Positions 19,661 to 53,922 of a stretch of 64,000 nucleotides of DNA are shown here, piece by piece. Position numbers and translations under genes: made by a program. The DNA is taken from contig OZ024744.1 in assembly GCA_964016885.1 (NCBI GenBank), positions 135,718,001 to 135,782,000 of the forward strand, in the 5' to 3' direction. The notes beneath the pieces are model-generated. The model ran no database searches. It was not told the origin of the DNA and was given only the letters and a program-made list of their open reading frames with translations. This stretch comes from Eledone cirrhosa. Its lineage: Eukaryota. How positions within the stretch are numbered: the stretch's first letter is position 1; each line of letters starts with the position of its first letter.

Positions 19661-20430
19661 TCTTTGTATTTGGTTGTTATGTCTCTCTCTCTCTCTCTCT
19701 CTATATATATATATATATATATATATATATATATATATCTTTGTATTTGGTTGTTATGTCTCTCTCTCTCTCTATATATATATATATCTTTATATTTGGT
19801 TGTTATGGCTCTCTCTCTCTATATATATATATTTATATATATATATATCTTTATATTTGGTTGTTATGGCTCTCTCTCTCTCTCTATATATATATATATA
19901 TATATTAGAAAGTGAGGTTTTTTTTACAAAATGAAAAATAACCGAGGTGTCCTACACGAGTGAAAGTATAAAGAAAAAGAGATGAAATCGAAATTGCAAC
20001 TGGAGTCTTATTTTTAAAAAAAATATATATATTTATTTGGTTCCTTTACCGGTTTCGTAGTTCTTCTGCTTTTCCAAAAGGTGAGTTGAGATGGAGGGTC
20101 TGCGGTTTTTCTCACATCTCATTCTCAGATGTGAGAAAAACCACAGACCCTCCATCTCAACTCACCTTTTGGAAAAGCAGAAGAACTACGAAACCGGTAA
20201 AGGAACCAAATAAATATATATATTTTTTTTAAAATAAGACTCCAGTTGCATTTTCGATTTCATCTCTTTTTCTATATATATATATATACATATATCTTTT
20301 TATTTGGTTGTTATCTCTCTCTCTCTCTCTCTCTATATATATATATATATATATATATATATATATATATATATATATATATATATATATATATATATAT
20401 ATATATATTTATATTTGGTTGTTATGGCTC
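19661..20430. repeat. Composite minisatellite (tcttt(g/a)tatttggttgttatg-(CT)n-(TA)n), ~6 units, interrupted by a hairpin element
   Basis: Units start near 19661, 19738, 19787, 19848, 20295 and 20408. Confidence 0.85.
19907..20273 (-). mobile_element. Asymmetric palindromic insert in (TA)n with degenerate hammerhead in each arm
   Basis: 19972-20273 is a near-perfect inverted repeat centred ~20123, with a 65-nt unpaired extension at 19907-19971. The motif CCUU-uuGgaAa-a-gcag-aagaa-cuac-GAAA-CCGG-UA-AAGG lies at 20165-20203 (mirror 20043-20081). Confidence 0.75.
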
Positions 20431-20520
20431 TAGATAAAGTCTATTGAGCCTCCTTATTGAGAAACACAAACATATTTGATGTGTTATATACTCAAATAAT
20501 GAATCAAAACACATCAAATA

Positions 20521-20707
20521 TGGATTGGCAGTATCGGTAGAGGGTCGGACTTTATGCTTTGATGCATTGAGTTACGGCCCTTTCCATTCTGAGTTCAAAT
20601 CCCGCCGAGGTCAACTTTGCCTTTCATCCTTACGGGGTCGATAAAATAAAGTACCAGTAATGTACTGGTGCTATTGCTGGCCTTGTGCCAAAAGTAGAAA
20701 CAATTAT
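20521..20707 (+). mobile_element. tRNA-derived SINE
   Basis: A-box-like TGGCAGTATCGG, B-box GAGTTCAAATCC, core gcctttcatccttacggggtcgataaaataaagtacc. Confidence 0.9.
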
Positions 20708-21339
20708 ATATATATATATATATATATATATATATATAACTCCGGAAAACCATAACTGTTGAGTGCTTCCAATCTATTGTAAAACTCATTCTTTGATTTA
20801 TTCATTGAACGTTGTTTAACCTTTAAATATATATATATATACACACATATATATGCCATTATAGTTTATTGTCACGGCAGGAAAACCTTTAATTATAAGT
20901 TTACTTGACCATACCAACCTGGGACTTAATTTAAGCCAGGCGGTGTTGTCTCCCTTAGCACTAATCACTGAATTAATATCCAGTAACGTCTGCTTTTCTT
21001 CTAGGTTTAGTTAAGCCTTTATCATTAACGTTACTCTATATTTACTATTATATTTTCCCAGTAAACATAATTATCTCACAAAATATTGAATCTATGAGAT
21101 TTTGATATTATTTATTTTGGGAACAATACCTTAACATCAGCATGAGCGGCTTGTTAGGGCCAGTTAGAACAGAAAATGTCGGAGAATTCTGGCCAGATAC
21201 GGACGGTTTAAATAAATGATTTAATAAATAACAGCTCTATTGAAACACTACTGTGTTGTTCTGAGATGATTTCAGTAGAATTTCAAATGGTAGAAGGACA
21301 AATATATTCTACATTTACTTTAATATAGATTTAAACAAA

Positions 21340-21830
21340 GATGGTAGAATGACAGAATTGGTGGAGTGTCAGATAACCTACCATTGCAGTATTTGTCCTG
21401 GTTTTTAATATTCTGAGTTCAAATCCCACTGAGGTAAATTTTATATTTTATTCTTCTAGGCTGGATAAAATATATTATATGTACTACGGTTGATTTAATA
21501 AACTTTGCCCTTCCCCCAAAATTGCTGGTCTTGAACCTAATTTACAAATAAATAGAGATTTAACAAGTTTGTGCTTCAAATTTCTCAAAACATTTTTATT
21601 TAGTGTGGCTAGTGCAGTAAATTGGCAGTAATCGGTAGAGCACCAGACAACAAGCTTTGCATCATATAGTTATGTCCTGTTACATTCTGAGTTCAAATCA
21701 TGTGGAGGGTAGCTTTCCCTTTCATCCATACGGGGTTGATAAAATAAAGTACCAGTAATACACTGAGGTTGATTTAACTTTCCCCACCCCTAATATTATT
21801 GGGCCTGTGCCTACATCAAATACCATTATT
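21340..21830 (+). mobile_element. Two older SINE copies (~21340-21550, ~21621-21830)
   Basis: ttctgagttcaaatc B-boxes with decayed cores. Confidence 0.65.
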
Positions 21831-50800: not shown

Positions 50801-52591
50801 TCTACTTATATATATAACCAGCAATTTCTCTGTCTGTCTGTCCGACAGTGGAAACACGTGCGTAGAGAGAGAGTGAGAGTGAAAGAAAGAGACAGACTAC
50901 GAGAGGGGGATAGCGGGAGGGAGAGAGTGAATAGACGCTAAAACACGTGCCACAGAAACATTACCTTCCCCTCTCCACTGACTTTGGTCACTGAGGCCGA
51001 GGGAATTGCGCTGAGCGCATCATAATGACATAATGCAGACAGCCAGACATACAGACAGATATTATAAGGGCGCAACGTTATATCTATGTATCTATCTAAA
51101 AAGAAAGACTAAGAATTATATAGAGAGAACGCTAAATCGCCTAATGCGGTCCCTAGGGCATTGAAAATTTGAAATAATTTTTGCTCAAAACACTCACAGG
51201 ACCATAAGTATTACATGTCTAAAGTTTGAAAACAATCGGTTGGATGGTTCTCAAGTTTTAGTGAGCTGACAGACATTCTCTGTTTTAGATATATAGACTA
51301 GCAGAAAACCGCCCCCCCGGGTGGTTTTCTGCTAGTCTATATATATAAAACAGAGGATGTCTGTCTGTGTGTCTGTTTCCCTAAAACTCAAGAAGTACCC
51401 AACCGTTTTTTTTCAAACTTTACACATGTAACCCGTATGGCCCTGGAAGTGTTTTGAGCAAAAAAAATTTCAAATTATTCTGACCTAGAGATCGAATTAG
51501 TGAAGTGGCCAATGTCTGTACATAATGAGGGAGTGAGAGGGGAGAGAAAGAAACGGAGAGGCGAAGTGAAGAAGTGGCCCTCTACTCCTCCTCCTCCTCC
51601 TCGTTTTTCGATAGAGGGGAGAAATGTGAACGAGTTACAGAGAGAAAGAGTGAAAGTGAAAGAAACAGACAGACTAAAAGAGGGGGATAGCGGGAGAGAG
51701 AGAGAGTGACAGACGCCGTCTTTTGAGAGTTGTATGCGTCAAAGATACATGAGAGTGGAATACCTATTGCGTGTGTGTACGTGCGCGCGTGTGTGTGAGT
51801 TTGTGTGTGTTTGCATGCGTGAGTGTGTAAGTGTACGTGTGTGATTATAAACTCTCTCACATGGTCTGATGGAATTAACCCTTTAGCATTTACATTACTC
51901 TATATATACTATATTATTTTCATGGTAAAGGCTTTATCTCACATAATATAAAAATCTCATAGATTTAATATTATTTATTTTGAGAACAATACCTTAACCC
52001 TTTAGTATTAATATGAGTGAGTTATAAAGAGAAAGAGTGAGAGTGAAAGAAACAGACAGACTAAAAGAGGGGGATAGCGGGAGAGAGAGACGCTGGAAGA
52101 GGAGAAGGAAAGCTATATGTCTTGCTGTCTGCATTACGATACATATATATACACATACACACTGATCGCGTCATAATGACATAATGCAGACAGCCAGACA
52201 TACAGACAGATATTATAAGGGCGCAACGTTATATCTATCTAAAAAGAAAGACTAAGAATTATAGAGAGAGATTGCTAAATCGCCTAATGCGGTCCCTTAT
52301 TATTTTGCTCAAAACACTCACAGGACCATAAGTATTACATGTGTAAAGTTTGAAAACAATCGGTTGGGTGGTTCTCAAGTTTTAGTGACCTGACAGACAG
52401 ACAGACAGACATTCTCTGTTTTAGATATATAGATATATATATATAATTATATATTCGTGTACAGATATTTTTGCATACACAATAACAAAATATAAATAAA
52501 CGTATTTCACGAGGCTCAATAGGGATAAATATATATCAAATATATAAGAACCCTAGAGCAAATCCCGAGTAACGCCGGGCCATTCTGCTAG
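50801..52591 (+). mobile_element. Non-autonomous composite Helitron
   Basis: Starts TC(tacttatatatataa) and ends with the hairpin cccgagtaacgccggg (52564-52579) plus CTAG. It sits between A and T with no TSD, as judged against the empty site in the other PLE arm (~45235-45260). Confidence 0.85.
51876..52015 (+). mobile_element. piggyBac-type MITE fragment inside the Helitron (related sequence ~21030-21215)
   Basis: TTAA-CCCTTTAGCATT start. The body matches 21031-21135. Confidence 0.55.
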
Positions 52592-53680
52592 TATTATATA
52601 TAACTGACTAATATCGTCTTAAACTTTAAACAATATACTCTTTGTATAAATTTAGACAAATGCGTATATCTAGTTTAATAATATCATTTTTAAGTATTAT
52701 AAGGCCTTTGGATACTTTAGGGCATTCTAATTGTTAATTTTAAATTTTTAAAGTTATAATTGTAATTGCTTTCTAAATTATATAATGATTATTTTTTAAT
52801 ATAAAATCTCTTCAATATAAAATTTTTTTTAATATAATTTAATATGGATTACCTTCAGGATGAAGAAAATATTAAGTCTCTTCTTTCTTATGTTTGCAAA
52901 TACTTTAAATATGATATTATACTATAATATAAATACTTATAAATTTTATAGCCTGAAATATTATACCTTTAGATTAATTCACTATTTTGAGCTAACATAA
53001 ATGATTCGAAATTTAACGGTCATCCGGATACATCTGGATATATATAATTGATTAATAGTCTATTTCTAATTAACTTAAGGACTCAAAATTAAACCCTCAT
53101 ATAACTACACCCAGATATATTTGATATTTTGATTGATTGATTATTTCTAAATAATTCAACGATTCGAAATTATTCATTCACAAAGCTATGCCCAAATATA
53201 TATTTATTTATTTATTTATTCATATATATATTTTTGCATCATCTAATTATACACTATTTATCCACGACAATACAAATCTCCCTCCCTATGCTTTATACTA
53301 TAAAAATTCTTCTTCCTTGTCTCTCTATCTTTAATCAATTTTCTTTTGCTTTAATGCATAAGATATTTCTATACTTCTAGTAACTATCTTTTTCCTCATT
53401 TGCTTCTCTCTCTGTCTTTCTTCTTTCTTCTTTCTTCAATAATTTAAATTATTTGAATCTCTAACAGTTATGTAAATTTCTATTATATTAGTAGCTGGTT
53501 ATTATTATGTATTTTTATAAGCTTTCTCACACGCACCCTCTGTATTATATGTAATTTTTTCATGTCTCAATCTTAAGGTATATAAATATTGAGTTTTGTC
53601 ATATCTTATTTTGTCATATCTTATTTGCCATGACTGAATTTTAACCATCTTACTTAGTCAGGGTATGTCATGCATCATCT

Positions 53681-53747
53681 TATTTTATCTGATGAGGACG
53701 TACTGTTGAAGATAGCTCAGTACCTCTGAAATATGTATAATAAAATA
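53681..53747 (+). ncRNA. Type I hammerhead ribozyme at the PLE 3' end
   Basis: UAUUUUAU-CUGAUGA-GGAcGUACUG-loop-CAGUACcUCU-GAAA-UAUGUA-UA-AUAAAAUA. Helix I is 8 bp, helix II pairs 9 of 10 positions, helix III is quasi-palindromic and the triplet is AUA. Confidence 0.85.
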
Positions 53748-53922
53748 TACTTGATCACACAAATGTCTATTTTTGTCAATATTTTGAATTAATATTAATA
53801 ACTCCGGAAAACCATTACTGTGGAGTGCTTCTAATCTATTGCAAAACTTTATTCTTTGATTTATTCATTGAACCTTGTTTAACCTTTAAATATATATATA
53901 TATATATATATATATATATATA

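Follow-up and report, generated by a model that had tools for sequence, protein, structure and literature searches.

The window analysed here comprises 64,000 nt of the 3.0-Gb genome of Eledone cirrhosa (contig OZ024744.1; G000:C28:135718001-135782000) and contains five short fold-back inserts and a coding Penelope-like element (PLE) at 44757-53890. The original prediction had described the inserts as lying between (TA)n tracts, each with inverted arms and a one-sided tail, and all five were found where it had placed them, between (TA)n or (TA,CA)n tracts. Inserts 1, 3, 4 and 5 are the 3' ends of coding PLE families and not a new non-coding class; insert 2 is a unit of a tandem hammerhead repeat, and the set thus comprises four PLE stubs and a single retrozyme unit, built on an already-known plan. 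Families carry the number of their insert, the coding family is that of the element at 44757-53890, and positions are those of the window. The main features are as follows (RT, reverse transcriptase; UTR, untranslated region).

19907..20273, minus strand: insert 1, Neptune-like PLE fold-back stub; the tailed arm runs leftwards.
38076..38728, plus strand: insert 2, tandem-repeat unit (38283-38728) plus an inverted partial arm (38076-38282).
40664..41228, plus strand: insert 3, PLE fold-back stub; its parent has a DKG-type RT plus a GIY-YIG domain at the C terminus.
41732..42491, plus strand: insert 4, Hydra-type PLE fold-back stub.
44033..44236, minus strand: insert 5, Hydra-type PLE fold-back stub, from a family that is very abundant.
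44757..50634, minus strand: inverted, 5'-truncated copy of a Hydra-type coding PLE, with a long 3' UTR ending at 44757.
50626-49899 (RT) and 49731-49207 plus 46438-46235 (GIY-YIG), minus strand: broken frames inside the inverted copy.
46438..49207, no strand assigned: secondary insertion with TTAA flanks and CCC...GGG ends, which splits the GIY-YIG frame and which we take to be piggyBac-like.
48196-48388: short interspersed repeat within the preceding insertion.
50631..53890, plus strand: copy of this PLE family in direct orientation; it comprises the 3' UTR only, is broken up at about 50819-52591 and ends in (TA)n.
50819..52591, no strand assigned: secondary insertion that ends in CTAG, within AT-rich DNA; presumably Helitron-like.

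Inserts and their parent families

The predicted plan of arms meeting at a fold-back point was confirmed for inserts 1, 3, 4 and 5 but not for insert 2 (arms 38076-38282 and 38499-38667, tail 61 nt), the centre of which is 216 nt of unpaired sequence holding the hammerhead. In insert 1 the arms lie inside 19972-20273, the 65-nt tail is on the left side, and the turn is near 20123, about 211 nt from the 3' end and at the upstream limit of the family (see below). Insert 3 (palindrome 40664-41187, tail 41 nt) turns 304 nt from its 3' end, also at the family limit, and insert 5 (arms 44115-44236, tail 82 nt) about 138 nt from its 3' end, at the zone of its family. Insert 4 (palindrome 41732-42381, tail 110 nt) turns at a short TA run that lies about 430 nt from the 3' end and away from any family limit. 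Between the two arms there is a single difference in each of inserts 3, 4 and 5, and insert 1 has five aligned positions that differ. Insert 1 lies within the TA part of a minisatellite, with four units on the left and two on the right; since units stand on both sides, the tract is likely older than the insert.

The coding element had been regarded as a scaled-up version of the same plan. An inverted copy is indeed joined to a direct one, but the open reading frame (ORF) lies in the inverted, minus-strand arm, which is the longer one, and the unpaired part measures 815 nt versus the 95 nt usual for the family. Both secondary insertions postdate the element. An antisense ORF was considered for this family and rejected: in copy L307 the ORF, the hammerhead and the tail are all in one sense. 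The 5' truncations at window position 50634 and at L307:3410-3434 are independent, no more than about 25 nt apart and inside the RT frame, and these sites are possibly a second hot spot. The end of the element recurs almost unchanged, together with its flank, at a distance of 12 Mb (L092, G000:C28:123664944-123668194), which is a segmental duplication.

The parents of the inserts were identified in longer genomic copies. Inserts 4 and 5 are Hydra-type, and inserts 1 and 3 are Neptune- or Nematis-like; the latter labels denote linker patterns named in PMC8557442 and not a place in a tree (published work is cited here for the sections consulted). The insert 3 parent, L301, has a 635-aa frame that matches Pfam RVT_1 (E 4.7e-11) and GIY-YIG (E 2e-4; 22.0 bits, slightly below the 22.6 cut-off). 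For family 1 the GIY-YIG end alone was recovered (L306, L079): the frame in the inverted copy L306 matches GIY-YIG with E 3.2e-6 and has a Cx4CxxC linker, and L079 holds the last codons in sense. Insert 4 leads to an upstream ORF with DKT and CxCx5C motifs in L303, and insert 5 to ORFs of the same kind in L305 and L310; the family-5 parent also has an RW-basic motif. A single ORF with RT and GIY-YIG, in the same sense as the hammerhead and the tail, was found in L301, L303, L305 and L307, Pfam matches being confined to families 3 and 1. According to PMC8557442, the Hydra clade is defined by DKT, CxCx5C and TA insertion. DKT is present in L303 and L305, and CxCx5C in L303, L305, L307 and the window, the truncated copies of the coding family being without the DKT region; insertion into (TA)n was seen in 23/30, 28/30 and 26/30 copies of families 4, 5 and coding, respectively. 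None of inserts 1, 3, 4 and 5 is a non-coding tandem unit, as longer copies run upstream into a PLE 3' UTR and ORF. A tail-ORF-tail layout typical of pseudo-long terminal repeats (pseudo-LTRs) was found in L303 and L305, and tail or core matches are spaced 3.45-3.54 kb apart in families 3, 4 and 5; neither tandem spacing nor the pseudo-LTR layout was seen for family 1 or the coding family.

Two side observations concern these families. A PLE RT fragment at 19045-19530 (minus strand; 57% identity over 61 aa to the insert 3 parent), adjoined by a short palindrome (19369-19483) and a TA-flanked end, probably represents a sixth PLE family. At L084-L089 (G000:C3:68.09-68.10 Mb) a family-1 stub lies within another repeat and has been amplified in a 0.9-kb tandem array.

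Fixed ends, variable centres and the upstream limit

To characterize copies genome-wide, the first 30 pattern matches of families 1, 3, 4, 5 and coding were taken in chromosome order (150 loci), because score-ranked loci favour copies spanning the whole query. The sample is not random, and a few paired ends of one insertion and segmental duplicates (such as L232-L235 and L267/L268) were kept in it. Tail length is family-specific (60, 41, 109, 78 and 95 nt in the above order), and the fixed tail was present in 16/20, 7/9, 12/14, 14/18 and 10/15 of the self-inverted copies. In each family the ends fall at two fixed sites, spaced 41-109 nt, and TA is joined to both. The 3' flank was TA-rich in 126/150 copies versus 749 of 8,190 background 16-mers (9%), and an inverted, 5'-truncated arm ending at the family site was present in 59/150; the (TA)n flanks make target-site duplications unreadable. 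The inserts are, as proposed, TA-biased products of several PLE families with inverted partial pseudo-LTRs, and their tails are tied to PLE ORFs.

At the other end the copies differ. Their 5' ends vary and the centre sequences are heterogeneous, and since the centres differ between copies, the hairpins are repeated by-products and not moving units. The original prediction had left open whether they move as units or are one-off truncations; they are one-off products that arise repeatedly and accumulate at a limit specific to each family. In several copies the inverted arm is longer than the tailed arm (tailed/inverted, for example, 198/315 in L212, 379/1180 in L221, 228/713 in L241 and 885/2032 in L146). 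Exact tail matches numbered 6,376 for insert 1 (35-mer), 9,435 for insert 2 (39-mer), 999 for insert 3, 77 for insert 4, 16,801 for insert 5 and 89 for the coding family (42-mer). Clustering with other families, scored by exact markers, was weak (6/120 with 2.05 expected, 4/120 with 0.78 and 2/150 with 1.44). No A-to-G editing was evident in the tailed arms, the arms that were scored, of the 59 sampled fold-backs (9 A-to-G versus 83 C-to-T changes).

Raw reads were examined for family 5 in three other DNA samples of the same species label. They contained strand-switch joints at the zone, and both end sites were seen joined to TA; because the reads show the same joints and ends, the fold-back architecture is not merely an assembly artefact; this support applies to family 5 at large, the five window loci themselves lying outside the check. 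A search of sequencing runs with one family-5 stretch listed no RNA run among those that contain it.

The longer arm ended inside a 20-nt zone in 17, 9, 15 and 10 of the 30 copies of families 1, 3, 5 and coding, respectively, and in the next 92 nt upstream in 3, 1, 0 and 1 copies. Genome-wide, family 5 has 2,840 exact read-through matches, compared with 14,651 core matches that do not carry the parent's upstream base, the arm being broken within 15 nt of the zone. Among 100 listed of 2,562 family-1 matches, 60 were broken at the zone and 40 were read-through variants, and a further 1,959 read-through matches were found (hand count). Across the family-5 limit the X1 contig depth fell from about 2.9 million to 0.14-0.43 million, a step of about 7- to 20-fold; X1 was used since the depth in restriction-site-associated DNA sequencing was skewed where many molecules end at a single position, which is probably a restriction site.

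Promoter-like signals accompany these limits. Families 1, 5 and coding each have a TATA-like box upstream of the limit, 29, 25 and 29 nt away, respectively, with a chance of about 0.05 in each case. The base that directly precedes the family-5 start and follows four A/T bases was G in 71 of the first 100 matches listed (806 in total), compared with 16/40 at a control start (hand counts; Fisher p 0.001). In family 1 it was G in 57 of the first 100 listed (161 in total), with just 3 matches at its own control. The order of sites in the family-5 parent is zone, inner site, outer site and, about 90 nt on, the first ATG; as the zone precedes both start sites and these precede the ATG, both sites would be in the leader of an RNA starting at the zone. 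The sharp promoter-like limit and the excess of untemplated G are what the DNA data suggest as an addition to the known PLE plan. The stub limit is described in no paper that we found; subscription papers, Repbase and supplements were outside the search and may describe these families.

Hammerhead motifs and the insert 2 repeat

Hammerheads were searched for with our own type I descriptor, 20 shuffled windows serving as background. Three motifs were detected in the window (at 38375, at 53689 and, on the minus strand, at 3481) and 0-1 in the shuffles (n=20). A hammerhead or a derivative of it had been predicted in four inserts, and an intact one was found in insert 2; the motif of insert 1 is damaged, those of inserts 3 and 4 failed the descriptor, and insert 5 has a half motif. 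The motifs of the inserts and of the coding family are:

38375..38405, plus strand: type I hammerhead of insert 2, with canonical core and palindromic helix III; descriptor match.
53689..53739, plus strand: minimal type I hammerhead of the coding PLE family, with an 8-bp helix I; descriptor match.
About 20043-20081, minus strand: damaged minimal hammerhead of the U3:A8 type in insert 1; the intact family motif passes the descriptor.
About 40998-41033: atypical hammerhead-like motif in insert 3; descriptor failed.
About 42225-42271: hammerhead-like motif in insert 4, with a weak helix I; descriptor failed.

The insert 2 motif gave a weak Rfam match (HH9, E 0.13, below the gathering score), the sole match among seven segments. 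With the whole window as query there was no hammerhead among the 150 Rfam matches listed of 259; these were microRNA families on TA repeats or palindromes, all below the gathering score. Two of five parent references passed the descriptor (families 1 and coding), and those of families 3, 4 and 5 are hammerhead-like by eye, with no Rfam hammerhead match. Insert 5 keeps just the 3' half of the ribozyme, as read by eye, because its turn falls inside loop II of the hammerhead. The family-5 hammerhead (L305:4290-4430, L141) combines a U3:A8 core with a long loop II, and this loop holds both the TATA-like box and the stub limit. RNA begun at this limit would be without half of the ribozyme, and cleavage is therefore predicted for read-through RNA alone. 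As the main cause of the limits, cleavage by the hammerhead was rejected: these lie 45-120 nt upstream of the predicted cuts.

Minimal hammerheads have been reported as opposite-strand pairs 100-700 bp apart, some with a U3-A8 core, and were laid to truncated PLEs (PMC4209133). The motifs described here resemble them in the short palindromic helix III, the U3-A8 variant and the opposite-strand pairs, and differ in that several window copies are damaged or half motifs. Another fold-back region, at 3326-3589, has an intact minimal hammerhead (3481-3427, minus strand) and two short hairpins. This stretch recurs inverted near 9490, inside a long inverted repeat at 1-12853 (its arms span 1-3382 and 9490-12853 and are 100% identical in their outer 1.9 kb) that encloses an RTE-like element; tblastn found no PLE protein match in the long repeat.

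Insert 2 is one unit of a head-to-tail repeat of 460-500 nt with the hammerhead marker in each unit; many of its 9,435 exact matches are in tandem, and the arrays are often two-armed with two fixed TA-joined ends. The longest ATG frame has 72 aa and low complexity, and the GC content is 35%. Folded as a circle, a 502-nt unit has 71% of its bases paired and an energy of -173 kcal/mol versus -110 +/- 7 for 30 shuffles, an excess that comes partly from the TA run of the unit. Tandem hammerhead repeats have been described as non-LTR retrozymes (PMC7229834), which were proposed to derive from PLE pseudo-LTRs (preprint 10.64898/2026.07.22.740005). By its sequence, the insert 2 family is a metazoan non-LTR retrozyme: it shares with the published ones the tandem non-coding organization, one type I hammerhead per unit, low GC content, self-pairing and a relation to PLEs. 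It differs in the two-armed arrays with PLE-type fixed ends, and it is known here from DNA alone. The PLE-like two-site footprint suggests that the repeat is likely mobilised in trans by a PLE enzyme; a retrozyme with this footprint supports mobilisation by PLE enzymes. The unit begins just before a ATGCAAAT motif (38283-38300), a possible promoter element that we take to be octamer-like.

Integration route and relation to known systems

General traits of PLEs include an inverted 5'-truncated copy, a one-sided tail of 30-40 bp and a bias for microsatellites (PMC8557442). AT-rich DNA is nicked and extended on both strands by a PLE protein, which starts reverse transcription at two internal sites of the RNA; the distance between these equals the genomic tail (PMC11167929). 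Penelope transcripts begin inside the upstream pseudo-LTR, from a TATA-less promoter (PMC2377424), and a rotifer pseudo-LTR has a TATA plus initiator-like layout (PMC3846280). The origin of the inverted and tandem structures is stated to be unresolved in PMC8557442 and PMC11167929.

The inserts are short head-to-head PLE ends in TA repeats, probably formed when the enzyme of the element, starting at two fixed sites, copied the front of its own RNA onto the two sides of a DNA break. Transcription would begin at a pseudo-LTR promoter that lies 140-300 nt upstream of the outer start site; both cDNAs would run off the capped 5' end of the RNA, be trimmed and then be joined via microhomology. Tandem copies transcribed into read-through RNA would be the source of longer copies. 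It is known that reverse transcriptase can copy a cap as an extra G. A more detailed form of this route, which we put forward tentatively, has an intermediate of strong-stop-like type: the enzyme, as a dimer, primes at two sites a short way downstream of the capped 5' end and runs off the cap, most events in some families yield joined stubs, and full copies need read-through RNA or a template jump. If so, tens of thousands of Hydra- and Neptune-like stubs would map promoters, RT start sites and 5' joining in vivo, and the family-5 promoter would lie inside the ribozyme, self-cleavage being limited to read-through RNA.

Several observations weigh against this reading. Pfam detected neither RT nor GIY-YIG in six Hydra-type pieces, the assignment of which is by motifs and mutual BLAST matches. 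Family 4 has no sharp limit (3/30), and its TATA-like box is at the pile-up instead of upstream; family 3 has a loose TTTAAAT only. The limits were picked after viewing the data, the family-5 control is still 40% G, and A-to-G editing or a subfamily base could add the G at the limit. Hairpins, read by eye, are located near the limit in families 1, 5 and coding. There is TA microhomology at the end sites, whereas the start sites in PMC11167929 are not homologous to the cut DNA.

The original prediction had favoured a snap-back route, in which a single cDNA folds at its 3' end and copies itself to a fixed point, and the hairpin is resolved and joined to the target; self-priming was proposed in PMC3846280. 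Many centres are near-perfect palindromes, and the arms share family-rare variants (13 sites in insert 4), indicating one template source, but such variants also fit two primings on one RNA. A self-copy cannot outreach its template strand, but the upstream extension of the inverted arm is often greater than that of the tailed one, as in the coding element of the window, even if later deletion could explain some cases. Taking into account also that the PLE protein extends both strands in vitro (PMC11167929), a pure snap-back route is doubtful, and we consider it unlikely. The identity of each arm to its nearest copy did not discriminate between the models.

A second alternative keeps the priming at two sites and lets secondary structure of the RNA or cDNA, by stalling or by trimming to a hairpin, set the limit instead of the RNA start. 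Structure could do so because families 1, 5 and coding have hairpins, read by eye, at the limit or just inside it; it would also suit family 4, which has no TATA at the expected distance, and the few copies that end near the predicted hammerhead cut (for example L185, L187, L218, L124 and L130; chance level uncomputed). It is at odds with the family-5 G excess at the limit, with TATA-like boxes at promoter distance in three families and with the family-5 limit, which is located beyond the 3' strand of helix II, at a place where no stalling would be expected. Such a limit appears quite unlikely to us.

That the hairpins are non-autonomous, retrozyme-like units, transcribed and re-inserted as such, is very unlikely. 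Short copies are very many, some centres recur (one in 15 of 100 listed family-1 matches) and insert 2 is a genuine non-coding repeat. Against this, centres are heterogeneous and the recurrent ones are at microhomologies, the coding parents have identical ends, and family-5 stubs are missing one half of the ribozyme as well as the TATA-like box. The proposed retrozyme-like class accordingly shrinks to insert 2, since four of the five inserts are ends of coding elements with centres that vary between copies. Finally, fold-back chimeras are a known sequencing artefact and the window loci lie outside the read check, but the chance that the palindromes are assembly or library chimeras is negligible, given arms that differ by point changes, family-fixed ends at many loci and raw reads of three samples with the same two TA-joined ends and strand-switch joints in family 5.

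The proposed copying of the RNA front from two sites onto both break sides can be compared with known systems. EN+ (endonuclease-positive) PLE insertions (PMC8557442, PMC3846280) share the head-to-head copy, the one-sided tail, the microsatellite bias and tandem pseudo-LTRs. The published pseudo-LTRs contain a hammerhead and a TATA plus initiator-like sequence, to which the hammerhead or hammerhead-like motifs and the TATA-like boxes of the families studied here would correspond. The insertions differ in tail length, 41-109 nt here versus the 30-40 reported in PMC8557442, and in that the sampled copies of families 1 and 5 are mostly ORF-less stubs ending at a sharp limit, which the consulted sections of these papers do not describe. 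Poseidon of Anolis carolinensis (PMC11167929) has in common the two internal RT start sites that bound the tail, the cutting and extension of both strands and the AT-rich target. The families studied here belong to other clades, the family-5 start sites are upstream of the ORF start, and the junctions show TA microhomology; the 5' joint is not addressed in the consulted part of PMC11167929. The Hydra clade (PMC8557442) is matched by DKT, the CxCx5C linker, the RW-basic motif (family-5 parent), (TA)n insertion and hammerheads or hammerhead-like motifs (families 4, 5 and coding). In contrast, units are about 3.5 kb with long 3' UTRs versus under 3 kb reported, and the family-5 hammerhead has the U3:A8 core and long loop II. 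An octopus repeat annotation names Penelope-like elements, in the consulted text without these structures (PMC13282606). The families, with their thousands of natural products, give exact, testable coordinates for two RT start sites and, in three to four families, for a predicted transcription start (about 211 nt upstream of the outer end in family 1, 139-143 in family 5, 266-270 in the coding family and 304 in family 3), and the hairpins could be substrates as double-stranded RNA if they lie within transcripts.

Elsewhere in the window, 57510-64000 is a tandem array with a unit of roughly 90 bp. The minus strand has a C2H2 zinc-finger array frame at 25809-26408, of which a diverged paralogous copy lies upstream (17877-18422).

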